A stretch of DNA of 64,000 nt from Pseudomonadales bacterium. Lineage in GTDB: Bacteria; Pseudomonadota; Gammaproteobacteria; Pseudomonadales; UBA7239. The translations under genes were made by a program, and so were the position numbers. Positions within the stretch are counted from its first letter, which is position 1; each line of letters starts with the position of its first letter. The DNA lies in assembly GCA_046347205.1 (NCBI GenBank), contig JAXMGN010000002.1, positions 670,224 through 734,223 of the forward strand, given 5' to 3'. Below are positions 21,240 to 61,114 of the stretch, piece after piece. Below the pieces are notes generated by a model that was not told where the DNA came from, ran no database searches, and saw nothing but the letters and a program-made list of their open reading frames with translations.

Positions 21240-21357
21240 ATCAAGCCTTTTGTCTATTTGGTGAATCGGCTCACATCTCAAACACCAACCATCACACTGA
21301 AATTGCCGCGCTAAAACCATAACTTACACTGACAGAAACCCGCCGGAGCATGCTGTT

Positions 21358-21744
21358 ATGAAAGATAAATTCATCGCCAAGGTGCCTGATTCTTATATCC
21401 CCCATCCGCAGCTGTCTGCACGCACACAATGGGAATGCAGTTTTAATGCCGCCTGCTGGGTGCGCTTATTGCAGGCACGCCCCTGCAAAATCAGCTTGGT
21501 ACTGAAATTTATCGACCAAGACAACATCAGCAAAGAAATCAAAATAGACACCGGCTCCAGTGAGCTGGGCGGTAGCATTTTGCTGTCAGGCTTGGTGCTC
21601 GTCCGAGCAGTTGGCCGAATTGCAGACATGAGCGTGCATCTCGAAGTGCCCGACAACAGCCCTGCTTATGTGGTCGACGAGTTATTTGTGCAAAGCACGG
21701 AGAAATCTGCGGCCAAAGTGCCAAAGTTGGTCACGGTTGCCTAA
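21358..21744 (+). CDS. hypothetical protein
   Basis: 128-aa ORF with an ATG start and core-like composition. No motif recognised. Confidence 0.4.
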   Translation: MKDKFIAKVPDSYIPHPQLSARTQWECSFNAACWVRLLQARPCKISLVLKFIDQDNISKEIKIDTGSSELGGSILLSGLVLVRAVGRIADMSVHLEVPDNSPAYVVDELFVQSTEKSAAKVPKLVTVA

Positions 21745-21765
21745 CGCACGCCATTAAGCAACGCA

Positions 21766-21990
21766 CTAGGCACGACCGACCGCTTCTTGCGGAGGTTCCT
21801 CTTTCCAGAGATTGAGCGCTTCGTTGAGCAGTGATTCAGCGAGACTGCTATTTTCTTCCTGCAAGCTCAGCAATGACACCGGCACAGATTCAAAAACCAA
21901 ACCTGTCAGTCGATTGATACGCTGCAATTCAGCTCGCTCATGTTTTGCACGAAGAGTCGCCACCTTGCTGTTCTCGTTCATGACCACCAC
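21766..21990 (-). CDS. hypothetical small protein (possibly coiled coil)
   Basis: 74-aa ORF convergent with the previous one. No motif recognised, so it may not be a real gene. Confidence 0.3.
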   Translation of the reverse strand: MVVMNENSKVATLRAKHERAELQRINRLTGLVFESVPVSLLSLQEENSSLAESLLNEALNLWKEEPPQEAVGRA

Positions 21991-22129
21991 TCCTCGCTTC
22001 GCCTTACCTATGAACTAGCGAGATTCGTGCCAACCCCGGCATCACGCGGAAAGCAGCGAGATACCGAGCCAGCACTTGTGAGATGTGGAAAAAATGATCT
22101 TCAGTGACAAAAATTGTCCACCAAATGTG

Positions 22130-23485
22130 TCAGCCGTCCAATAAAGCGACCAATTCATCGCGGCGCTGCTCCATCAACGCCTGATTGCCGCGCGTCTCCA
22201 CGTTCAAACGCACCACCGGCTCGGTGTTGGACATGCGCAAATTGAAACGCCAATCGGCAAATTCCAAACTCAAACCATCGGTATTGTCTTCGTGCAGAGC
22301 TTCAGCGATATAGCGGTCACGCGCCCGTGCAATGGCGGCTTTGGGATCGGCAATTTCGCGGTTGATTTCACCGCTGACGGGGTAGGCACGCATGCGCTCC
22401 TCCACCAATTGCGACAGCGGTTTGCCACTGCTGCACACCAAACCGGCGACCAACAGCCACGGAATCATGCCGGAGTCGCAGTAGGCAAAATCACGGAAAT
22501 AATGGTGGGCACTCATTTCGCCACCGTAGACCGCATCTTCTTTGCGCATGCGCTCTTTGATAAAAGCGTGACCGGTTTTGCTCTGTACTGCACGACCGCC
22601 AAACTGTTCGCAAATAGCCAATGTATTCCACGTCAAACGCGGGTCATGCACAATTGCCGCGCCTTTGTTGTGCGCTAAAAATGCTTCCGCTAACAAGCCA
22701 ACTACGTAGTAACCTTCAATAAAATTGCCTTTTTCATCGAAGAAAAAGCAGCGGTCAAAATCGCCATCCCAAGCAATCCCCATATCCGCGCCCGACGCTT
22801 TCAACGCATCAATGGTGGAACCGCGGTTTTCTTCCAATAGCGGATTCGGCACACCATTGGGAAACGTGCCGTCCGGCTGGTGATGCACTTTGACGAATTG
22901 AAACGGCAAATGTTTTTCCAGCGCATCCATCACCAAACCCGCGCCACCATTGCCTGCGTTGATAACCAATTTCAGCGGTTTTAATTGAGCGCGATCCACA
23001 TAACCCAACAAGTGCTGCACATAGGCATCACGCGTGGATTGTGCTTGATAATTACCTGCTCGCAGCGGTGCAGCAAAATTGCCGCTCTCTGCCAAGGCTT
23101 GAATGTCTTTCAAACCGGTATCGCCACTGATGGGGCGCGAACCTTCGCGCACAAACTTCATGCCGTTGTAATCCATGGGGTTGTGGCTGGCCGTTACTGC
23201 GATGCCGCCATCCATACCCAAATGAAATGTGGCGAAATACACTTCTTCTGTGCCGCATAAACCAATATCAATGACATCCGCGCCCTGCTCGCGCAAACCG
23301 CGCACCAAGGCATCAGACAAAGCTTGGCTAGAAAGACGAATATCATGCCCCACCACCACACTTTTTGCGCCGAGAAACTGCACAAAAGCGCGGCCGATGC
23401 GATAGGCCACATCTTCATTGATTTGATCCGGCACGCGGCCGCGTACGTCGTAGGCTTTGAAACAATTGATTTGAATAGCACTCAT
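22130..23485 (-). CDS. algC: phosphomannomutase/phosphoglucomutase
   Basis: Active-site phosphoserine motif [11 protein letters not shown] and the metal-binding loop DGDFDR. ATG at 23485 is preferred over the upstream TTG. Confidence 0.85.
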
Positions 23486-27279: not shown

Positions 27280-27352
27280 TACACTCCATCAATCCCTCTA
27301 CAGTGCGCCGCTATAATGAGCGCCACTTTCTTGTCCGACTGGAATACACCGC

Positions 27353-42416: not shown

Positions 42417-42546
42417 AGCGGCGCACTCCAGCGGGTTCTTTGTGGCCGCGAAGTCTACCACAAGCCCCTCTTATCGCCCCAAGCGCCAAGGCTGGCTGCT
42501 ACAATGCGCGCCCCGATTTATCGATCTGCGCAAGGCACCACTGCCC

Positions 42547-48142: not shown

Positions 48143-48244
48143 TGCAATCAGCGTCCTGTAAAAAGCCGCATTCTAACGCAGCCCCAAACCTGCCGCTGCC
48201 TATGCAAGAGGCTACAATGGAGCCGAACCGCCGGAGACGACGCC

Positions 48245-50812: not shown

Positions 50813-50960
50813 AAGAATTCCGCTGTGAAAGTTAAGCCTAGCAAGGCTCGCATGATAGCAAAATTGCCCTCCAAGACCGCGAAATACGGCTGCTGGACTC
50901 CTTGGCTGTCGCTACAATGGCAAGCTGACTATTCGCACGTTCACGAGGCAACCCTCCGTC

Positions 50961-53036
50961 ATGCTAGGCAAACTCTTTGGCTTCAACAAAAAACAACCCA
51001 CGACCGCACCAACCGTGCCTACACCAACGCCCACGCCTGTGGAAAAAAAACACAACAAACCCACACTGCAAACACTGGCCAGTGTGCAATCGGTGGATGA
51101 CATCCATGACATCCAGCAGCTACAGCAATTACTCAAACAAAGTGCTGCGTTAGACAAAAAAACCAATCAACTGCTGCGCGACCGTTTGCACAGCCTCAAA
51201 GCGACTGAACAGCAACGACAGCAACACCATGAGGCACAAGAAAAACTGTGCCAAAAATTGGAAACGCTTGCCAAATTGCAATATCACCCATTATTCGACA
51301 ACGAGCTCTCACACTTAACGCAACAGTGGCAAGCAATCGTCACACCCGATGCAACCCTCGCCACACGCGTAGAAACCGCCATCGCACGCTGCCTACAGAT
51401 ACAAACAACTGTCCAACAACAGCAGGCCGATTTAGAAGCCGCCGCACAACAAGCGGCTGCAAAACAGGCACAACGCCAAGCAGAGCTCGCCCAACAACGC
51501 GCTGATGCAGAAGCGCAACAAGCTCTAGCACTGGAACAACAAAAACAGGCGCAAGCTGAGCAACAAGCCCACTACACCGCGCAAAAAAAACAACACCAAC
51601 GCCAAAAAAATCTGTCGCAACAACACGAACGGCAGGATTGGCAGGCCTTTGCCACCCTACCGAAATTAGAAGAACTGTGCGTGGCGATGGAAAAACTCTG
51701 TGCCAGCACGCTGCAACCGCTAGAAACCGCCGAAGCTGTGCGCGATTTACAAACACAATGGCGCGCCATGAAACCGCCGCACACCTCCGAAGCGCAAACC
51801 CTGTGGGAGCGTTTCAAACAAGCCAGCGACACCGCGTGGGAACCGTGTGCGGCGCACTATGAAAAAGAACGTGAACGTCGCACTTTTAATTTGCAGCAAC
51901 GACAAATCATTTGCGAAGCACTAGAACAATTTTTTCAAACACAAGATTGGAACAGTGCAGATTGGAAAGCCGTCTCGCGCATTCTGGAAAAATCTCGTAC
52001 CGAATTTTATAACTTTCATCCCATCGAGCGCCATGAAGAAAAAACCATGCGCAGTCGCTTTGATGCCGCCTTTTCAGCCATCAATCAGAAACTACTCGAG
52101 ATACAAACCACCAACGAAGCGCGCAAACAGCAACTGGTAAACACTGCCAATAGTGTTGCCGAAATGGTTGATACTGAAAAGGCCATAGAACGCTTCCTGC
52201 AACTGCAAGAGCAATGGAAACAGATCGGCATTACACGCCACCACGAGGACAGAAAGTTATGGCAAGCTCTGCAAGACGCAGGAAAACGTATTTTTGATAA
52301 ACGGCGCACCGCTCAACAGCAACAACGCCAGACACAAGACGAGCAGATAACGCAAGCCAAAGCGGTTTGTGAACGCATTGCACAACTGGCAGCACTCAGC
52401 GATGACGAGCTATCCCAAAGTGCGGCTACATTCGAGCAGCTGCAAAACGAATACAAAGCCATCAGAGATATTCCAGAAAAACTGCAAACACCCCTGAAAA
52501 AACAATTTTTAGCGGCTTGTGATGCCTACCATCAACAACTGCGCGGCATTGCCACACGTCAACATCAAAAACAATTAGTGGAATTGGCACGCCGCGCACA
52601 GCTGTGCGCACAACTAGAGAGCCAGCTCGACGCGGAAACGGCTGCACTATTGGAAACCACATGGCAGCAACACACCCTACCTGCAGAATGGGAAAAAGCC
52701 ATCGAGCGCAGAAAACAACAAGCTCTCGCCGCTATCTCTCAACAAATACCGCTAGATATTGCTGCCAACACACAGCAGCGGCGCGAATTGTGCATTGCAT
52801 TGGAAATTCTTCTCGACATAGACACGCCCGAAGAAGATCGCCCACAGCGCCGAGCCATGCAGCTTCAAAAATTACAGCAGGGGTTAGGGCAATCCGCCGC
52901 CAGCAATCAACACAGCACACTGGAACAACTGCTGGTGGATTGGCACTGCACGGGCTTAGCTGCTGCCACCGAGCATGCAACACTCACAGCGCGTTTTGAT
53001 GCTGCCCTGCTAAAAGCAAACACTGCGCGGCGGTAA
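50961..53036 (+). CDS. DUF349 domain-containing protein (Gln/Ala-rich helical repeats)
   Basis: 691 aa with repeated W-x-x-F-K / WKQIG helical modules (LWERFKQA, QEQWKQIG), typical of DUF349. Confidence 0.7.
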   Translation: MLGKLFGFNKKQPTTAPTVPTPTPTPVEKKHNKPTLQTLASVQSVDDIHDIQQLQQLLKQSAALDKKTNQLLRDRLHSLKATEQQRQQHHEAQEKLCQKLETLAKLQYHPLFDNELSHLTQQWQAIVTPDATLATRVETAIARCLQIQTTVQQQQADLEAAAQQAAAKQAQRQAELAQQRADAEAQQALALEQQKQAQAEQQAHYTAQKKQHQRQKNLSQQHERQDWQAFATLPKLEELCVAMEKLCASTLQPLETAEAVRDLQTQWRAMKPPHTSEAQTLWERFKQASDTAWEPCAAHYEKERERRTFNLQQRQIICEALEQFFQTQDWNSADWKAVSRILEKSRTEFYNFHPIERHEEKTMRSRFDAAFSAINQKLLEIQTTNEARKQQLVNTANSVAEMVDTEKAIERFLQLQEQWKQIGITRHHEDRKLWQALQDAGKRIFDKRRTAQQQQRQTQDEQITQAKAVCERIAQLAALSDDELSQSAATFEQLQNEYKAIRDIPEKLQTPLKKQFLAACDAYHQQLRGIATRQHQKQLVELARRAQLCAQLESQLDAETAALLETTWQQHTLPAEWEKAIERRKQQALAAISQQIPLDIAANTQQRRELCIALEILLDIDTPEEDRPQRRAMQLQKLQQGLGQSAASNQHSTLEQLLVDWHCTGLAAATEHATLTARFDAALLKANTARR

Positions 53037-53102: not shown

Positions 53103-55673
53103 ATGATCATCAGCCAAAAAACCATCATTAATCTCGCCATCGTCACCGGCATTGCCGCCGTCGTCATTGCAACATGGGCTTTTTTCAATCGCCCCATGAC
53201 AGCACCAGACTGGCCTGCCTCGATTTCCGGCTATGCCTATTCACCGTTTCAAAACGGGCAAGATCCCACCAAAGATATATATCCCAGCGATAACGAAATT
53301 CGCTCTGATCTCGCCCTACTATCACAACAAACGCACAATATTCGTACTTACTCAGTCAAAGGGACACAAGCCAACATCCCGCGTTTAGCACAGGAATTTG
53401 GCATGAGCGTGGTACAAGGTATTTGGATTAGCAACATTGAAGCAGACAATGATGCAGAAATTGCACGCGCTATCGGTGTCATCAACAACAATCGCAACAT
53501 CACCATGGTGGTGGTGGGCAACGAGAGCATGTATCGCCGCGAAGTGGATTTACCGCGCCTGATTGATTACATCGAACAAGTGCGCAGCAAAGTCAAAGTT
53601 CCTGTTACTACCGCAGAAACTTGGGATATTTGGCTGAAATACCCAGAGCTGGCACAGCACGTTGATGTCGTCACAGCACACATCTTGCCTTTCTGGGAAA
53701 AAATACCCGCCAGTGCATCTGTTCCATTCGTTCTCGAAAAAGCCCAAGAAGTGAAAACTGTTTTTTCACAAAAACCGCTGCTGCTTGGCGAGGTGGGCTG
53801 GCCGTCGTTCGGTCGCAGTCGTGGCGCCGCCGAAGCCAATCAAGTGGATCAAGCAATTTATTTGCGCAACTTATTAAACGCACTCAATACTGCCGGCTAT
53901 AACTATTTTGTTATTGAAGCTTTTGATCAATTATGGAAATCAGGCGCAGAAGGCGACGTAGGAAAATACTGGGGTGTTTACAACGTCAATCGCCAACCTA
54001 AGTTCCCGTTTACTGGCAGCGTAATCAAAATTCCACAATGGCGTTTACTGGCCGTAGTATCTGTCATTATGGCTATTTTGACGCTTGCATTGTTGCTCAT
54101 TGACAGCTCTGGACTTAAACAACGCGGCAGAGCATTTTTGGCATTTATTGCTTTCTTATTTGCCTCATTCTTGGTCATTGTTACCTACGATTATTCACAG
54201 CAATACATGACATGGCTAAATGTCATTCTTGGTATTTTCTTAGTCATTGCCGCTATCGGTGTTTTCGTGGTGATGTTTACTGAAGCACACGAATTGGCAG
54301 AAACCGTATGGGCACAACGGCGCAGGCCGTTTATCGGCGTTGCCAGTGATGACGCCTATCGCCCCAAAGTGTGCATCCAAGTGCCGTGTTACAACGAACC
54401 ACCAGACATGGTAAAAGAAACGCTCGATGCATTAGCTGCACTCGATTATCCTGACTTTGAAGTGATGATCATCGACAACAACACCAAAGACGAAAATGTG
54501 TGGCGACCTGTTGAAGAATATTGCAAAACACTGGGTCCGCGTTTCCGCTTTTTCCATGTTGCACCACTGGAAGGTTTCAAAGGCGGCGCATTGAACTGGG
54601 CGCTGGAACGCACCTCGCCGGACGCAGAAATTATTGCTGTCATCGACAGCGATTACTGCGTAGACCCGAACTGGCTCAAACATTTGGTGCCACATTTTGC
54701 CGATCCTAAAATTGCGATTGTGCAAGCACCGCAAGATTATCGCGACGGCGATTGGTCACTGTTCAAAAAATTGTGCTATGCAGAGTACAAAGGGTTTTTC
54801 CATATCGGCATGGTCACGCGCAATGATCGCAACGCGATCATTCAACACGGCACCATGACGATGATACGCCGCGAAGTGATGGATCGTTTGGGCTGGGCGG
54901 AGTGGACAATCACTGAAGATGCAGAACTCGGTTTGCGCGCGTTTGAAGAAGGTTTATCGGCCGCTTACGTCAGCAACTCTTACGGCAAAGGCGTAATGCC
55001 CGATCGCTTTATCGACTATAAAAAACAACGCTTCCGTTGGGCCTACGGTGCGATGCAAATTATGAAAGGCCACTTCAACAGTTTGTTCAAAGGGCGCAAC
55101 ACCAAACTGACACGCGGCCAACGCTATCACTTCATCGCCGGCTGGATGCCGTGGGTAGCCGATGGCATGAACTTATTTTTTACCGGCGGCGCTCTGCTGT
55201 GGACATCCGCCATGCTGCTGGCACCCACCAAAGTTTTACCGCCCGCGTTAGTGTTTGCACTGCCACCACTGATTTTATTTTTCTTCAAACTGGGAAAGAT
55301 TTTGTACATCTACAAAAGCCATATGAAAGTACCGTTGAGCACTTCTATCGGCGCAGCCATTGCAGGTTTAGCACTGTCACACACCATCGCCAAGTCTATC
55401 ATTTACGGCATCTTCACTAAAACCATTCCATTTTTTCGCACACCCAAAATGCGCGACCAAGGTGGTTTTATGCTGGCATTAGCGGAGTGCCGTGAAGAAT
55501 TATTTTTCTTGGTGTTGTTGTGGGGTGCTGCCGCAGCCATGTTAATTACCCACGACATGGAAACTGGCGACGCATGGGCATGGTTCTTCATGTTGCTGAT
55601 GCAATCACTCGCCTATCTCGCAGCGGTTTTTATGGCCTTTCTTTCTGTTTTGCCTCAAAAGCAACCCGAATGA
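53103..55673 (+). CDS. ndvB: NdvB-like bifunctional GH17 glucanosyltransferase / GT2 beta-(1,3)-glucan synthase
   Basis: An N-terminal TM helix is followed by GH17 motifs VVVGNESMY and LLGEVGWPS. The central GT2 domain has IIDNNT, VIDSDY and the QRFRW motif. There are multiple C-terminal TM helices. The size and architecture match what I recall for P. aeruginosa NdvB. Confidence 0.8.
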   Translation: MIISQKTIINLAIVTGIAAVVIATWAFFNRPMTAPDWPASISGYAYSPFQNGQDPTKDIYPSDNEIRSDLALLSQQTHNIRTYSVKGTQANIPRLAQEFGMSVVQGIWISNIEADNDAEIARAIGVINNNRNITMVVVGNESMYRREVDLPRLIDYIEQVRSKVKVPVTTAETWDIWLKYPELAQHVDVVTAHILPFWEKIPASASVPFVLEKAQEVKTVFSQKPLLLGEVGWPSFGRSRGAAEANQVDQAIYLRNLLNALNTAGYNYFVIEAFDQLWKSGAEGDVGKYWGVYNVNRQPKFPFTGSVIKIPQWRLLAVVSVIMAILTLALLLIDSSGLKQRGRAFLAFIAFLFASFLVIVTYDYSQQYMTWLNVILGIFLVIAAIGVFVVMFTEAHELAETVWAQRRRPFIGVASDDAYRPKVCIQVPCYNEPPDMVKETLDALAALDYPDFEVMIIDNNTKDENVWRPVEEYCKTLGPRFRFFHVAPLEGFKGGALNWALERTSPDAEIIAVIDSDYCVDPNWLKHLVPHFADPKIAIVQAPQDYRDGDWSLFKKLCYAEYKGFFHIGMVTRNDRNAIIQHGTMTMIRREVMDRLGWAEWTITEDAELGLRAFEEGLSAAYVSNSYGKGVMPDRFIDYKKQRFRWAYGAMQIMKGHFNSLFKGRNTKLTRGQRYHFIAGWMPWVADGMNLFFTGGALLWTSAMLLAPTKVLPPALVFALPPLILFFFKLGKILYIYKSHMKVPLSTSIGAAIAGLALSHTIAKSIIYGIFTKTIPFFRTPKMRDQGGFMLALAECREELFFLVLLWGAAAAMLITHDMETGDAWAWFFMLLMQSLAYLAAVFMAFLSVLPQKQPE

Positions 55674-55674
55674 T

Positions 55675-56418
55675 ATGTGCCTAATTTTGTTCGCTTGGCA
55701 ATGCCATCCCCAATACAAACTGGTGGTGGCTGCCAACCGCGACGAATTCTATGCGCGCCCTTCCGCTCCAGCGCATTTTTGGCAAGATACACCGCAAATT
55801 CTCGCTGGCCGCGACCTGGAACAAGGCGGCACTTGGTTAGGCGTGACACGCAGCAAACGCTTTGCCGCCATCACCAATGTGCGCGATCCATCAGCAAAGC
55901 AAGGCACGCTATCACGCGGCTATTTAGTGCGCGATTTTCTTGCTAGCAAACAATCGCCCACCAACTTTATTGCGCAACTGCAAAATCATCTCACCGACTA
56001 CAGCCCTTTTAATCTTTTATTGAGCGATGGCCATACGCTGCACTACTGCAACAGCAGTGGAGAAATGCTCTCATTGCAGCCTGGCGTTTACGGCTTATCC
56101 AATGCCGCTCTCGACACACCTTGGCCCAAAGTAGAAAGTGGCAAACAAGCACTGTCCGACAACTTGTCAGACGTACAGCATGAATCCCTGTTTTGTTTAT
56201 TGTCTGATCGCACACAAGCCAGTGAAGAGCAACTCCCTACCACCGGCATTCCACAGTGGTTGGAGCAAAAACTCTCCGCTAGTTTTATACACTTCGACAG
56301 CTACGGCACACGCTGCTCAACCTTGATGCTGCAAGCACACAACGACAACATGGATTTTCTTGAACGGCAATTTAGTGACGATGGAAGCCCTATAGCCACA
56401 CGCCAATTTCAATTATAA
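55675..56418 (+). CDS. NRDE family protein (DUF833 / TANGO2-like)
   Basis: N-terminus MCLILFAW... and the eponymous motif VVAANRDEFYARP. Confidence 0.85.
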   Translation: MCLILFAWQCHPQYKLVVAANRDEFYARPSAPAHFWQDTPQILAGRDLEQGGTWLGVTRSKRFAAITNVRDPSAKQGTLSRGYLVRDFLASKQSPTNFIAQLQNHLTDYSPFNLLLSDGHTLHYCNSSGEMLSLQPGVYGLSNAALDTPWPKVESGKQALSDNLSDVQHESLFCLLSDRTQASEEQLPTTGIPQWLEQKLSASFIHFDSYGTRCSTLMLQAHNDNMDFLERQFSDDGSPIATRQFQL

Positions 56419-56437
56419 AAAATACAGGAGATGCACC

Positions 56438-57691
56438 ATGCAAAAAACACTGGAAGATTTTTCACGCGCACAACTGGCACAACTGGCGCGCGAATACATG
56501 GTAGCTTCGCAATTTAATAGCCGCACCGGTTACGCCGCACTGCGTATGAATCACGGTGATGCAGCCTACAAAGATATCGCCATTGATAATTGGCTCGCTG
56601 CCAGTCCGATTTACACGCAGCGCATGCAACACGCGATGGGCTTTGCTGGTGGTACGGATGTCGCCACTATTTTCAAAGGTCTGCAATTGGATTGTGGTTT
56701 AACACATCAATATTTTGATGCACATTTTGAAGTGCAAGCAGAAGACAAAGGGCGTTTTTGGCTGGCGAGTTGCGGACCGTTATTGGAAACTGAACCGCGT
56801 GGTGAAGCAGCGGTCAAAATTATGTGTCACGATATTGAAGACCCCACCTTCGATGGCACGGCGATTGCCACCAACCCGCGTGCGCGCATGCGCCCCGTGC
56901 ATCGCCCGCCACGTATTCCTGTCGATCGTACACCGCACTGCGAGTGGAATGTTTTTATCGACCACGATGCAGAGCCCCTGACAGAACCCACGGTGACAGC
57001 CGAACTGCGCAAATCGCTGCTCGCCAATCTCCACATCCAGCGCACTGCAAATCACGAACAAGGCGGCATGGATTTTTACGATGGCGACGTATTTGAGCAA
57101 TTGCGTTTTGAGCAACTATCACACGCCGCGCTGGTGGTGGTGTGCAAAGAAATTGCCGTGCAAAATCACTTACTCATTCTCGGTTTGATGCAGGCCATTG
57201 CACAACAATACGGCGAAGCGGCCGCGCGCACGGTGGCAGAGTTTCAAATGGCTGGCAGCGGCTGGGTGATGAGCGAACGCTTAAAAAAATGGCTAAGTAT
57301 TGAAGGCGGCGGTATCGACAACCTAATCCGCGTACTAGAAGTACACCCTGCGTTTCAGCCTGCGGAATATCACCACTTAGCCATCAAAAAAACTGGCGCC
57401 CATACCGCTGAGTTGCAGATTGCCGACTGCGCGGCGCTGCACGAATCACCCACACAAAATTTAGGTTGGTACAGCTTGTTGCCACTCGCCAAAACAGCGG
57501 GGCTGGAAGGCATTATCAAAGGCATTGATCCGCGCGCCTCACTGACAACTGGCAATGCAACCATGCACTGGCACATTGCGATTGATGAGAATGCTGAGGC
57601 AGCACCAGAACCGCTGCCCGTACAAATCGCCAAGGGCACGGTGCTGTACCAAACACAGCTAGAAAACCATATTCCACTGCTGCAAACATAA
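56438..57691 (+). CDS. hypothetical protein (417 aa, apparent internal duplication)
   Basis: ATG with GGAGA upstream, 19 nt after the NRDE gene. No recognisable family motif. Confidence 0.55.
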   Translation: MQKTLEDFSRAQLAQLAREYMVASQFNSRTGYAALRMNHGDAAYKDIAIDNWLAASPIYTQRMQHAMGFAGGTDVATIFKGLQLDCGLTHQYFDAHFEVQAEDKGRFWLASCGPLLETEPRGEAAVKIMCHDIEDPTFDGTAIATNPRARMRPVHRPPRIPVDRTPHCEWNVFIDHDAEPLTEPTVTAELRKSLLANLHIQRTANHEQGGMDFYDGDVFEQLRFEQLSHAALVVVCKEIAVQNHLLILGLMQAIAQQYGEAAARTVAEFQMAGSGWVMSERLKKWLSIEGGGIDNLIRVLEVHPAFQPAEYHHLAIKKTGAHTAELQIADCAALHESPTQNLGWYSLLPLAKTAGLEGIIKGIDPRASLTTGNATMHWHIAIDENAEAAPEPLPVQIAKGTVLYQTQLENHIPLLQT

Positions 57692-57750
57692 GGCTGCCGC
57701 CACCTGCGACTTCGGCTAGAATCCCCGCTTTCCTTGATTGGGTAGTCGTA

Positions 57751-59613
57751 GTGTCTAGCTCCAGCCATCGCCCCGTTGCCATCCTCGGTATCTCCGCCTA
57801 CTACCACGACAGCGCCGCCGCGCTGGTGGTGGATGGCAACATCGTCGCCGCCGCGCAAGAAGAGCGCTTTACGCGCAAAAAGCACGACGCCGAGTTCCCA
57901 GCAGAAGCTATTCGCTACTGCCTGCGTGAAGCCGGTTTGTCGCTGACCGACATCACGCATGTGGTGTTTTATGACAAACCCCTCATCAAATTTGAACGCT
58001 TGATGGAAACCTATCTCGCCTACGCGCCCGCAGGTTTTCGCTCGTTTGTCAAAGCCATTCCGGTATGGCTAAAAGAAAAACTGTATTTGAAAAAAACGCT
58101 GCGCCGTGAATTGGCAGAACTCGGCAGCATTAAAGAAACGAATTTACCGCCACTGCTCTTCACTGAGCACCACCAATCGCACGCCGCTTCTGCTTTTTTC
58201 CCCAGCCCTTTTGAAAAAGCCGTGGTGATGTGTTTAGACGGCGTGGGCGAATGGGCAACCAGCTCCGTGTGGTTGGGCGACGGCAACACACTCACACCGC
58301 AGTGGGATATTAACTTTCCGCATTCACTCGGTTTACTGTATTCCGCGTTCACTTATTACACCGGCTTCAAAGTCAATTCCGGCGAATACAAGCTAATGGG
58401 ATTGGCGCCTTATGGCACGCCCAAATATGTCGATCTAATTTTTGATCATTTAATTGATGTAAAAGCGGATGGCAGCTTTCGCTTAAACATGAGTTACTTT
58501 AATTACGCCGCCGGTTTAACCATGACGAATGAAAAATTTCATCGTCTATTTAATGGTCCACCACGCGCACGCGAGTCCGAAGTTTCACAAAAAGAAATGG
58601 ACATTGCACGCTCCATTCAAGTGGTCACTGAAGAAATCGTTTTAAAGTTGGCGCGCACAGCACACAAAGAATTGGGCGTCGACAAACTCTGTCTCGCCGG
58701 TGGCGTAGCATTGAATTGTGTGTCGAATGGTCGCCTGCTGCGTGAAGGCCCATTTTCTGAAATTTGGGTACAACCGGCTGCGGGCGATGCCGGCGGTGCG
58801 CTCGGTGCAGTACTGGCTATTTGGCATCAATACCTTGAAAAACCGCGCATACCACAACCCAGCGATGCCATGCAGGGCGGCTATCTCGGCCCGCGCTACA
58901 GCGATGCAGAAATCACCGCCTATTTAGATAGCGTTGGTGCTAAATATCAGCGCCTCGATGACAAAGAACTTCTGCCCAAGCTGGCGCACATTATGGCCAG
59001 TGAAAATGTTATCGGCTGGTTTCAAGGGCGCATGGAATTTGGTCCGCGCGCACTCGGTGGTCGCTCAATTATCGGCGATCCACGCAGCCCCAAAATGCAA
59101 TCGGTGATGAACTTAAAAATCAAATACCGCGAATCGTTTCGCCCATTTGCACCTGCCGTTAAAGCCGACAAAGTGAGCGAATGGTTTCAACACCAAGCCG
59201 TCAGTCCGTATATGTTGATGGTGGCTCCCGTGGCAGAAGACAAACGCATTCCGATGACACTGGAGCAAGAGCGTTTATTTGGCATCGAAAAACTTAACGT
59301 ACCGCGCTCACAAATTCCCGCAGTAACGCATGTGGATTATTCCGCGCGCATTCAAACTGTGCATCCAGAAACCAATCCGCGTTTTTACACGCTGTTGGAC
59401 GAATTTGAAAAACTCACCGGCTGCCCTGTCTCCATCAACACTTCGTTTAACGTGCGCGGCGAACCTATCGTCAATACGCCGGAAGATGCCTACCGCTGCT
59501 TCATGCGCTGTGAAATGGATTATTTAGTATTGGAAAATTATTTACTCGCCAAACCAGAACAACCGGTATGGGAGAAAAACGATAACTGGAAAGACGAATT
59601 CGAGTTGGACTGA
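57751..59613 (+). CDS. carbamoyltransferase (NodU/CmcH family)
   Basis: N-terminal ILGISAYYHDSAAALVVDGNIVAAAQEERFTRKKHD and the C-terminal carbamoyltransferase domain (SFNVRGEPIV). GTG start. Confidence 0.9.
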   Translation: MSSSSHRPVAILGISAYYHDSAAALVVDGNIVAAAQEERFTRKKHDAEFPAEAIRYCLREAGLSLTDITHVVFYDKPLIKFERLMETYLAYAPAGFRSFVKAIPVWLKEKLYLKKTLRRELAELGSIKETNLPPLLFTEHHQSHAASAFFPSPFEKAVVMCLDGVGEWATSSVWLGDGNTLTPQWDINFPHSLGLLYSAFTYYTGFKVNSGEYKLMGLAPYGTPKYVDLIFDHLIDVKADGSFRLNMSYFNYAAGLTMTNEKFHRLFNGPPRARESEVSQKEMDIARSIQVVTEEIVLKLARTAHKELGVDKLCLAGGVALNCVSNGRLLREGPFSEIWVQPAAGDAGGALGAVLAIWHQYLEKPRIPQPSDAMQGGYLGPRYSDAEITAYLDSVGAKYQRLDDKELLPKLAHIMASENVIGWFQGRMEFGPRALGGRSIIGDPRSPKMQSVMNLKIKYRESFRPFAPAVKADKVSEWFQHQAVSPYMLMVAPVAEDKRIPMTLEQERLFGIEKLNVPRSQIPAVTHVDYSARIQTVHPETNPRFYTLLDEFEKLTGCPVSINTSFNVRGEPIVNTPEDAYRCFMRCEMDYLVLENYLLAKPEQPVWEKNDNWKDEFELD

Positions 59614-60041
59614 TGACTGCTTCTGACAAAAAAACTGCAATGACAGATGCCGAATTGCGCAAATTCGGTTTGGTAACCGGTGCTATATTGATCGGCTTGA
59701 TCGGCTGCTTTTTGCCGTGGCTCAAAGGTGGCATCGAAAAAATGCTGCACTGGTTGCTTTATGTAGGACCGGTTGGTGGTGCGCTGATCGTCTGGGCACT
59801 GCTGCATCCAGCGAGCCTCATTCACTTCTACAAACCGTGGATGAAGCTGGCAGAAGGACTAGGCTTCATCAACACGCGCATTATTTTGTTCATTTTGTTC
59901 TACGGTCTATTTATGCCCATGGGCTTGATCATGCGACTCACCGGCAAAGACCCCATGCACCGCCAGCTCAACGCCGCTCTGGACACTTACCGCGTGACCC
60001 GCAACAATCCCGCCCGCCAACATATGGAGAAACCCTACTGA
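59613..60041 (+). CDS. SxtJ-family small membrane protein
   Basis: 142 aa with 3-4 TM segments. The start overlaps the carbamoyltransferase stop (TGATG), which is the usual position of SxtJ-like genes. Confidence 0.6.
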   Translation: MTASDKKTAMTDAELRKFGLVTGAILIGLIGCFLPWLKGGIEKMLHWLLYVGPVGGALIVWALLHPASLIHFYKPWMKLAEGLGFINTRIILFILFYGLFMPMGLIMRLTGKDPMHRQLNAALDTYRVTRNNPARQHMEKPY

Positions 60042-60193
60042 TGCTTGAACTACTCAAAGACTTCGCTGGTTTCATGAAAGAGCGCAAGAAATACTGGCTG
60101 GCACCTATCGTTATTGTGCTCTTGCTACTCGGTTTGTTGATTGTGTTCGCCCATGGCTCGGCAGTAGCACCTTTCATCTATACCTTGTTCTAA
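60041..60193 (+). CDS. DUF5989 family small membrane protein
   Basis: 50-aa product MLELLKDFAGFMKERKKYWLAPIVIVLLLLGLLIVFAHGSAVAPFIYTLF matches the DUF5989 pattern (KERKK-W-L-P ... GSAVAPFIYTLF). The start overlaps the SxtJ stop (TGATG). In the ORF track it is hidden inside the longer 59717-60193 ORF. Confidence 0.7.
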   Translation: MLELLKDFAGFMKERKKYWLAPIVIVLLLLGLLIVFAHGSAVAPFIYTLF

Positions 60194-60208
60194 ACAGCCA
60201 CTCTGCGA

Positions 60209-60240
60209 AAAGCCCGCTTCTTTCAAGGCGGGCTTTTTTA
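60209..60240 (+). terminator. rho-independent terminator after the DUF5989 gene
   Basis: AGCCCGC-N10-GCGGGCT followed by TTTTT. Confidence 0.7.
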
Positions 60241-60330
60241 TGCCTTACAGATCGGCAGATGCGAAAATAAATGATAACAATTCGTATTTGCTGTAGAATA
60301 CACGCGCCCACTTTAAGGAGAATCTCTGTT

Positions 60331-61020
60331 ATGCGTCGCTCTTACCTGTCTCTGTTGCTTGGCTGTGCGCTGGCGCTGCCCACTTTGGCTCATGCCGGCC
60401 TCAGTTTGACCACCACAGCCGCCACGAACTACATTGCCGATGGCGTCAGCACATCAGACAACGGTCCAGTGCTACAGCTAGGGTTGGACTACGAACACGA
60501 CAGTGGTTTTTACGCAGGTGTTTGGGCTTCCAATGTCGACAGCGATGAGAAAGGCACTCCCAACCTTGAATTGGATTATTCCATTGGTTTCAAACACAAA
60601 TTAACCGATGCCATCGAAGGCGACGTGGGCATCACGCACTACAGCTGGTATCACCCAGATGGAAACAGTGACGAATGGAATTACCAAGAATGGTATGCCG
60701 GCCTCACTTGGATGGAAAATACATCCTTGTACTACTACTACGCCGATGACAGCAAAGTGTGGGATGGCGTACAGCGCCGTATCATCGCCGAGCATGTACA
60801 GCCCCTGCCAAAAGATTTTTCACTTATCTTGACGGCTGAGCGCGTGGACTTGGAAACCTCTATTGCCGAAGACTACAGCGCGTATCGCATTGGTGTAGCC
60901 AAAACTTGGTTTGATGTGGACTTCACACTGAGCTACTGGAGCAACTCCATTCACGATGGTGACAGCACAACCAAAGATCACATTGTGCTAGAAGCCAGCA
61001 AAACTTTTGATCTGTTTTAA
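60331..61020 (+). CDS. TorF-family putative outer-membrane porin
   Basis: Signal peptide ending LAHA, then the family pattern TNYIADGVSTSDNGPVLQLGLDYEHDSGFYAGVWASNVD. Ends in an aromatic residue (F). Confidence 0.7.
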   Translation: MRRSYLSLLLGCALALPTLAHAGLSLTTTAATNYIADGVSTSDNGPVLQLGLDYEHDSGFYAGVWASNVDSDEKGTPNLELDYSIGFKHKLTDAIEGDVGITHYSWYHPDGNSDEWNYQEWYAGLTWMENTSLYYYYADDSKVWDGVQRRIIAEHVQPLPKDFSLILTAERVDLETSIAEDYSAYRIGVAKTWFDVDFTLSYWSNSIHDGDSTTKDHIVLEASKTFDLF

Positions 61021-61047
61021 TTCTCCAACGATCAGAGCAACACCAAT

Positions 61048-61078
61048 AAAAAAGCCCGCAGCGATGCGGGCTTTTTTG
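61048..61078. terminator. bidirectional rho-independent terminator
   Basis: AAAAAAGCCCGCA-GCGA-TGCGGGCTTTTTT, with A/T runs on both sides, between convergent genes. Confidence 0.75.
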
Positions 61079-61114
61079 TGTTTCTTCGTTTCAACAGTTC
61101 ACTGTTTCAACAAC

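Follow-up and report, generated by a model that had tools for sequence, protein, structure and literature searches.

The Genes of the Locus

We have studied a run of seven genes in the genome of a Pseudomonadales bacterium, in which ndvB, the gene for an NdvB-type β-1,3-glucan synthase, lies a short distance upstream of three genes encoding an O-carbamoyltransferase, an SxtJ-family membrane protein and a DUF5989 protein (referred to here as the trio, or the cassette). The window, i.e., the whole stretch of 64,000 nucleotides that was analyzed, corresponds to G000:C2:670224-734223 within a genome of 2.3 Mb, where G000 denotes the source genome; other G numbers denote its relatives. We conclude that the seven-gene run is probably a mosaic of independent units that have been juxtaposed by descent in one genus, and not one pathway. 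The first unit would comprise ndvB and the following TANGO2 gene, together with an upstream DUF349 gene and, in this species group, a gene for a 417-amino acid (aa) protein. The carbamoyltransferase-SxtJ-DUF5989 cassette would form the second unit, and a TorF gene inserted at an old terminator the third.

All of these genes lie on the forward strand. The ndvB gene (53103..55673) encodes 856 aa, identified as a GH17 plus GT2 β-1,3-glucan synthase from Pfam matches, Protein Data Bank (PDB) matches and motifs. It is preceded by the DUF349 gene (50961..53036; PF03993, 103 bits), a neighbor that is conserved within the genus, and followed by the genes for a TANGO2/NRDE-family protein (55675..56418; PF05742, 242 bits) and the conserved 417-aa protein (56438..57691). 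The carbamoyltransferase gene (57751..59613) has a GTG start and encodes 620 aa. After it come the genes for a small polytopic membrane protein of the SxtJ family (59613..60041, 142 aa; PF19588, 51 bits) and for a single-pass DUF5989 (SxtK-type) microprotein of 50 aa (60041..60193; PF19451, 92 bits), the latter masked by a longer reading frame. The run ends with the gene for a putative outer-membrane porin of the TorF/Gcw_chp family (60331..61020).

The preliminary description of this region had placed seven same-strand genes between 53103 and 61020, and all are present at those positions. The gaps that it gave, of 1 nt between ndvB and TANGO2, 19 nt between TANGO2 and the 417-aa gene and 59 nt between that gene and the carbamoyltransferase gene, are correct when read directly, as are the TGATG overlaps at the carbamoyltransferase/SxtJ (59611-59615) and SxtJ/DUF5989 (60039-60043) junctions. 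The terminator expected after DUF5989 is found as a hairpin on the forward strand (60207..60240) resembling an intrinsic terminator and closing the cassette; its stem is 13 bp long and accompanied by a U run, and its folding energy is −19.9 kcal/mol (z −3.84). A terminator consensus scan did not call this hairpin, owing to its reading of the loop. The start of the porin gene, put about 90 nt past the terminator, is the ATG at 60331, preceding a signal peptide.

Linkage of ndvB to the Cassette

The preliminary description had joined NdvB, the carbamoyltransferase trio and the porin in a single pathway. At its fullest, this would mean that the units have fused in this genus into one functional operon, the cassette O-carbamoylating the periplasmic β-1,3-glucan made by NdvB to give a new substituted osmoregulated or cyclic glucan. 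A pathway behind the packing would have implied a carbamoylated periplasmic glucan of a new class. Is the linkage maintained in other genomes?

Among 40 relatives, the carbamoyltransferase gene is present in 15 of the 15 genomes of the same family, and ndvB in 13. The order ndvB, 417-aa gene, carbamoyltransferase gene is adjacent in G000, G002, G003, G004, G006 and G011 only. This retention of the neighborhood in at least six species of the genus counts in favor of an operon. In G009, however, one contig carries the carbamoyltransferase gene at 291 kb, the 417-aa gene at 306 kb and ndvB at 357 kb, and ndvB is on the opposite strand and 65 kb from the carbamoyltransferase gene. In G010 and G005, 2.6-6 kb of unrelated cargo intervenes between ndvB-TANGO2 and the carbamoyltransferase gene, encoding an SBF transporter, a Ser/Thr kinase, a Rieske oxygenase and an FAD-oxidase-like protein. 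Representatives of two sister genera (G013 and G014, 94-96% complete) hold the trio with no ndvB match, and in G038 the trio and ndvB are 1.46 Mb apart.

We have also analyzed a sample of 299 genomes from the class, in which the trio was scored by DUF5989 above its cut-off (43 genomes) and ndvB by E below 1e-80 (26 genomes). There was no ndvB match in 31 of the 43 trio genomes (72%), and 54% of the ndvB genomes lacked the trio. None of the 12 genomes with both has ndvB adjacent to the trio; they are on different contigs in 11 and 50 kb apart in the other. Similarly, ndvB, TANGO2, the 417-aa gene, DUF349 and TorF were found in none of 80 cross-phylum carbamoyltransferase loci (±10 kb), and the trio, TANGO2, DUF349 and TorF in none of 20 class-level ndvB loci (±8 kb). 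The adjacency is therefore local to the genus (0/12, 0/80 and 0/20 outside it), and the trio occurs independently of ndvB in most genomes, an outcome that the preliminary description had itself named as speaking against its proposal. A single pathway of NdvB, trio and porin is not supported. By the comparative evidence the packing is mostly not the sign of a pathway, and this negative result spares a misdirected experiment.

The Sequence Upstream of the Cassette

A block of the form CTGCC...GACTTCGGCTAGAATC...GGTAG.CG.AGTG occupies about the last 50 nt before the carbamoyltransferase start in all members of the genus, corresponding to positions 57700..57750 (forward strand) of the window. It is kept whether the gene upstream is the 417-aa gene, a Ser/Thr kinase gene or an EF-hand gene, while the sequences farther upstream are unrelated. 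Within it is a −10-like element, GCTAGAAT, at 57715-57722, with the −10 box (TAGAAT) approximately 29 nt before the GTG start; the TAGAAT is found in two sister genera as well. The 59-nt gap in which the block lies forms no stable hairpin (z +0.85). Because the block is conserved whatever gene lies upstream, we read it as a putative promoter belonging to the cassette itself, and this conservation is a further point against an operon running from ndvB.

Some observations weigh against the independence of the units and against this promoter call. None of the three gaps between ndvB and the carbamoyltransferase gene (1, 19 and 59 nt) holds a terminator, nor is there one anywhere between 55673 and 57751, so that read-through co-transcription from ndvB into the carbamoyltransferase gene is possible in this species. 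The lack of a terminator, together with the tight packing on one strand, is what an operon would show. The sequence GCTANAAT was tried as a genome-wide −10 signature, and it occurs in the window no more often than by chance (7 times against 7.6 expected); the promoter call thus rests on the conservation between species. Lastly, ndvB and the trio co-occur at the level of the genome. Both were present in 12 genomes of the class sample where 3.7 were expected (odds ratio (OR) 6.7, p 4e-5), a value uncorrected for phylogeny. TANGO2, which was chosen as the control since the 417-aa gene is present in 0 of the 299 genomes and so unusable for this purpose, shows no co-occurrence with the trio (OR 1.4) or with ndvB (OR 0.72), likewise uncorrected. 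The profiling of ndvB against the trio that the preliminary description had suggested thus gives an association between genomes, with no adjacency outside the genus. It is a specific residual signal in favor of a connection, and one that is cheaply testable.

Five of the seven occurrences of GCTANAAT are in upstream intergenic positions (57715-57722, 50911-50918, 48211-48218, 42498-42505 and 27310-27317), including one 36 nt before the carbamoyltransferase gene and one 50 nt before DUF349.

The TorF Gene

The TorF protein scores 132.9 bits against TIGR02001 (cut-off 47) and 79 bits against PF09694. Its start is the ATG at 60331, with the signal peptide MRRSYLSLLLGCALALPTLAHA, and not the ATG at 60271; upstream of the start is a TAGAAT box of its own at 60294-60299. 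The gene is bracketed by two near-identical hairpins (AAAGCCCGC...GCGGGCTTTTTT), i.e., that closing the cassette at 60207-60240 and another at 61046-61079, a bidirectional terminator common to TorF and a convergent SDR gene (−23.9 kcal/mol, z −4.85). In G005, G009 and G010 only 76-90 nt separate the DUF5989 stop from the convergent SDR stop, leaving no room for TorF, which is therefore absent there; G009 has a single bidirectional hairpin between the DUF5989 and SDR genes. TorF is 46-69% identical among congeners, compared with 86-96% for the flanking genes, and it was found in no other trio or ndvB locus, either among the 80 cross-phylum trio loci or the 20 class-level ndvB loci.

Given its absence in congeners, its divergence relative to its flanks and the look-alike hairpins that bracket it, we regard TorF as a separate, variable and lineage-specific insertion with a putative promoter of its own. 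It looks like a cassette that was inserted at, or duplicated, the ancestral terminator. The proposal that TorF exports the product was rejected, the gene being a variable insertion behind a terminator. In G003 (locus L003) a TorF homolog aligns over the region 76-773 as two high-scoring segment pairs in different frames, pointing to a frameshift in the gene or an error in the assembly.

The Components of the Cassette

The carbamoyltransferase has two domains, Carbam_trans_N (PF02543, 408 bits) and Carbam_trans_C (PF16861, 248 bits), and it matches NovN (3.7e-89), GdmN (1e-82) and TobZ (3e-78) in the PDB over its full length. We class it as an enzyme of the TobZ/NovN/GdmN/SxtI type, with predicted Kae1-like and YrdC-like domains. 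It had been described as NodU-type. Membership of the NodU/CmcH/TobZ family is upheld, but against the NodU equivalog model NF041651 the protein scores 150.6 bits, far under the cut-off of 1000, and on this account it is not NodU itself. No transmembrane (TM) segment is predicted, so the enzyme is probably cytoplasmic.

There is a single copy of the gene in G000, and proteins identical to its product derive from activated-sludge metagenomes. A cross-phylum search gave at least 600 matching stretches. Enzymes of 59-75% identity occur in Cyanobacteria, Verrucomicrobia, Nitrospira, Acidobacteria, Ignavibacteria and Omnitrophota, and in Parcubacteria, Pelagibacter, Sorangium and others. Identity at this level over very distant phyla (loci L117-L196) is unusually high for an enzyme without a known substrate. 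In the congener G010, a carbamoyltransferase-like domain of 36% identity lies inside an open frame of 1559 aa (G010:C2:98485-100281, locus L028), which may encode a large fusion protein.

SxtJ has three hydrophobic segments. In an alignment of 104 homologs only R16, F18, P66, W76, P102 and Y125 are conserved at 90% or more. DUF5989 has one TM segment, with basic residues (KERKK) in the N-terminal region ahead of it; since these lie at the N terminus, a topology with the N terminus inside and the C terminus outside is predicted. The protein ends in FIYTLF-COOH (60173-60190). All of the 48 class loci examined share a C-terminal motif (A/S)PF(I/V/L)Y(T/A/V)(L/I/V)F, in which the Tyr is invariant, and the proteins all end at the same position. 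In the proteins DltX and PatA, the Tyr of an FXYXXF motif carries D-alanine or acetate, respectively, and an SGNH enzyme then takes the group (PMC12148441).

In nearly all of approximately 130 loci the three genes stay together, although their order is permuted. When the neighbors of 49 trio loci were compared, no genes recurred other than those for the carbamoyltransferase, SxtJ and DUF5989. The same-strand partners in 45 loci are heterogeneous, with GT1 (4), GDSL (4) and epimerase (3) out of 60 giving only a faint glycan flavor; Polysacc_synt_2 also occurs among them. The trio is a self-contained cassette of the SxtI/J/K type. It is a very widespread module, extending across phyla from Pelagibacter and Parcubacteria to cyanobacteria.

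An SGNH Family That Tracks the Trio

A hidden Markov model (HMM) was built from the SGNH genes adjacent to trios, and a second profile from 18 such proteins. By HMM, 43 of the 80 cross-phylum loci have an SGNH gene no more than 2.5 kb from the carbamoyltransferase gene, and one is directly adjacent in approximately 16 of 48 class-level trio loci. When the 18 trio-adjacent proteins were aligned, the catalytic Ser and His were invariant and the block-III Asn nearly so.

We have examined the distribution of this family over the class sample. A full-type match was taken as one that included the N-terminal region in an open reading frame of at least 340 aa, and up to six candidates were scored per genome; three of the training sequences of the profile come from genomes of this sample. 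A full-type, TM-anchored SGNH protein was present in 34 genomes, of which 33 are trio-positive. The resulting table (33/10/1/255) corresponds to an OR of ~840. That the family and the trio are distributed together almost exclusively, even where the genes are dispersed, is independent evidence from phylogenetic profiles for a fourth component, as well as for carbamoylation by an extracytoplasmic route.

The source genome itself contains about 10 SGNH paralogs of the trio-linked family, nine of them with an N-terminal anchor, dispersed singly among housekeeping genes. The anchored paralogs are at 435996-437027, 58955-59980, 406966-407949, 21283-22281 and 477668-478732 of contig C2, at 327122-328075, 673074-674168 and 1090663-1091766 of contig C1, and at 58620-60083 of contig C4. 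The window contains none of them, and the family match closest to it (G000:C2:477668) is ~250 kb away. Their neighbors include fadBA, miaE, serS, cobU and genes for an ABC-F ATPase, a sulfatase and an ABC1 kinase. Nine anchored proteins is the highest count relative to the class sample, where up to six were scored per genome. The window contributes both the co-distribution statistics and an example in which all of the SGNH partners are unlinked.

The SGNH family bears on the relation to ndvB as well. It co-occurs with ndvB at the level of the genome (OR 5.3), which favors an operon for glucan carbamoylation; against this, a search of 23 ndvB loci gave no gene of the family within 8 kb.

The Function of the Cassette

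The most likely role of the cassette, which we put forward tentatively, is in extracytoplasmic carbamoylation by way of unlinked SGNH enzymes. In the mechanism that we envisage, to which as a whole we would give somewhat less than an even chance, the cytoplasmic TobZ-like enzyme would activate carbamoyl phosphate with ATP, and the carbamoyl group would be passed at the membrane to the invariant Tyr of the outward-facing FIYTLF tail of DUF5989, with SxtJ acting as a scaffold. At least one dispersed, TM-anchored SGNH enzyme would then move the group onto an envelope polymer. More specifically, and with more reserve, the cassette could be a relay that is independent of MBOAT proteins, holding carbamoyl on the Tyr of the terminal motif and feeding about 10 dispersed anchored SGNH transferases, each of which would decorate a different envelope polymer. 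The NdvB glucan would at best be one candidate substrate. As a fallback, the preliminary description had allowed for another secreted glycan, with the small membrane proteins acting at membrane steps; the FxYxxF motif and the co-distributed SGNH family make this much plausible, although the part given to the porin is rejected.

Several observations weigh against a relay. There is no MBOAT gene among the recurrent neighbors of the trio loci. The 104 SxtJ homologs have no conserved His, Ser, Cys or Asp, and so offer no candidate for a catalytic residue, and DUF5989 has no match in Pfam to the DltX family. At the threshold used, 10 of the 43 trio genomes have no full-type SGNH match. In G000 and in its family the trio has no SGNH gene beside it, and the neighborhoods of the paralogs in G000 give no clue to the substrate.

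An alternative is that nothing is relayed across the membrane. SxtJ and DUF5989 would then do no more than anchor the carbamoyltransferase to the inner membrane face or regulate it there, the FxYxxF sequence would be a packing or interaction motif, and the substrate would be a lipid-linked sugar, an intermediate of the lipopolysaccharide (LPS) core, as proposed for WapO/PA5005, or a small metabolite. We regard this as rather unlikely, but it has points in its favor. The lack of an MBOAT protein and of a conserved catalytic residue in SxtJ would be expected. All of the solved relatives (TobZ, NovN and GdmN) act directly on hydroxyls of small molecules; WapO is a stand-alone putative carbamoyltransferase for the core heptose of LPS (PMC8005017), and the saxitoxin pathway has a soluble alkaloid as the substrate (PMC2679770). 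Moreover, the same-strand partners of the trio include cytoplasmic glycan enzymes (GT1, epimerases and Polysacc_synt_2). A simple tether does not sit well, however, with a terminal Tyr and an exact C-terminal end that are invariant in 48/48 loci across the whole class, in a tail that the charges predict to face outward. Nor does it sit well with the near-exclusive co-distribution of the trio with a TM-anchored SGNH family that retains its catalytic triad, or with the SGNH gene adjacent in 43/80 loci.

Carbamoylation of the NdvB β-1,3-glucan, as a target of the relay, would explain the co-occurrence of ndvB and the trio between genomes, and an outward-facing shuttle motif would put the chemistry in the compartment of such glucans; yet we judge this target improbable, and equally so an operon dedicated to it, in view of the linkage data above and since no carbamoylated glucan turned up in the literature, which was not searched directly for one, and the preliminary description was likewise aware of none.

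Comparison with Known Systems

The extracytoplasmic route that we favor can be compared with those of the microprotein DltX and of the MBOAT protein PatA, which has the motif in its C-terminal tail (PMC12148441). DUF5989 is, like DltX, a single-pass microprotein, with a predicted outward FxYxxF motif at its extreme C terminus and an invariant Tyr, the motif being FIYTLF here and FIYANF in PatA of N. gonorrhoeae. A pairing with membrane-anchored SGNH enzymes, to which the co-distribution points, would be a further likeness. In contrast to the DltX system there is neither an MBOAT partner nor a carrier protein; an ATP-dependent carbamoyltransferase serves as the donor enzyme, and the group transferred would be carbamoyl. 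There is also no match between the protein families.

The sxt cluster for saxitoxin carries sxtI, sxtJ and sxtK together with the GDSL-type sxtL (PMC2679770). The same three families are present here, contiguous and coupled, with sizes of 620/142/50 aa compared with 612/134/54 aa as computed from the gene lengths in PMC2679770, and a fourth GDSL/SGNH member is adjacent elsewhere in 43/80 loci. Among the closest carbamoyltransferases are enzymes from filamentous cyanobacteria, 68-72% identical. Unlike the sxt clusters, this locus has no toxin genes and no adjacent sxtL-like SGNH gene, about 10 dispersed paralogs being present instead, and the cassette is a core gene of a bacterial family (15/15 genomes). 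Its substrate is probably an envelope polymer, and not an alkaloid as in sxt.

WapO (PA5005) is a putative 7-O-carbamoyltransferase of the inner-core heptose of Pseudomonas LPS, an envelope glycan (PMC8005017), and is a precedent for carbamoylated envelope sugars. In contrast to the cassette, no SxtJ or DUF5989 appears in the core-oligosaccharide gene lists of PMC8005017. Second carbamoyltransferase-like genes in other families of the order are 36-39% identical to the enzyme studied here; there is none in G000.

TobZ, NovN and GdmN (PDB 3VEN, 9S2T and 7VYJ) match the enzyme over both domains, and the same carbamoyl-adenylate chemistry presumably applies. They are soluble tailoring enzymes of secondary-metabolite clusters, whereas the enzyme here is housekeeping-like, conserved across phyla and tied to two membrane microproteins.

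NdvB and Its Neighbors

The product of ndvB has an N-terminal anchor, a GH17 domain, TM helices, a GT2 domain and C-terminal TM helices, in that order, with hydrophobic segments at 2-29, 307-399, 709-736 and 798-851. It would be a bifunctional β-1,3-glucan synthase, with a predicted periplasmic GH17 domain and a cytoplasmic GT2 synthase domain. The GT2 domain matches PF13641, PF00535 and PF13632 at 92-99 bits, and residues 364-724 match BcsA in the PDB search (4.5e-19); the motifs DSD (DxD, at 515) and QRFRW (at 642) are present, and hydrophobic segments flank the domain. The GH17 domain scores 26.5 bits against PF00332, slightly under the cut-off of 28.2, and residues 60-288 match the GH17 β-1,3-glucanosyltransferase 4wtp (1.1e-23). 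From what is known of the family, the GT2 domain would polymerize from UDP-glucose and the GH17 domain would transglycosylate or cyclize the chain, so that NdvB alone would make a periplasmic, probably cyclic, β-1,3-glucan.

This protein resembles NdvB of P. aeruginosa and Bradyrhizobium, BcsA-like proteins of the 'Orphan' type (PMC10237404), in combining GH17 with GT2, in carrying QxxRW and DxD motifs and in the layout of its TM segments. NdvB-type genes are described as 'orphans' without conserved partners (PMC10237404), and ndvB here likewise stands alone. Full-length homologs of 41-53% identity are found in 26/299 class genomes. The DUF349-ndvB adjacency is retained in G009 and G010; no DUF349 gene was present within ±8 kb in the 20 class-level ndvB loci. 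Unlike those of P. aeruginosa and Bradyrhizobium, ndvB in this genus has a coupled gene on its 3′ side, that for TANGO2, and a separate GH17 paralog 320 kb away in G000, adjacent in G038. The latter is a protein of 589 aa encoded outside the window on the reverse strand (G000:C2:400210-401979); it is 35% identical to the N-terminal part of NdvB, and its gene adjoins ndvB in G038. It may be an NdvC-like partner of NdvB.

The match of the TANGO2 protein to PF05742 spans residues 1-234, and the N terminus is MCLILFAW, with Cys at position 2. Although its gene begins 1 nt after ndvB, the two adjoin inside the genus only, with no such adjacency in the 20 class-level ndvB loci. The 417-aa protein has no match in Pfam or NCBIfam. 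It has more than 2100 homologs of nearly fixed length, with 60-65% identity in Halioglobus and Haliea, and in Halioglobus-type genomes these occur in unrelated contexts without ndvB or the trio. Among the 40 relatives the gene is restricted to the genus, and even there it is not at this site in G007, G010 and G009, where it is found on a different contig or at a distance of 14 kb. It is best viewed as lineage-specific cargo at this site. TANGO2 and the 417-aa protein were both rejected as general glucan-modifying partners, since beyond the genus neither is adjacent to ndvB or co-occurs with it.

An AF2 model of the 417-aa protein, calculated with an alignment (pLDDT 90.5), contains a tandem duplication of a domain of two helices and a β-hairpin. 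A Foldseek search with this model gave weak matches only, to the H-NOX, Bet3 and MopR-sensor folds (E 0.06). The family has many invariant Cys and His residues (C112, C130-H131, H155, H167-C168 and H303). In two Halieaceae-type loci, a gene for a luciferase-like monooxygenase is adjacent to the 417-aa homolog, or two genes from it.

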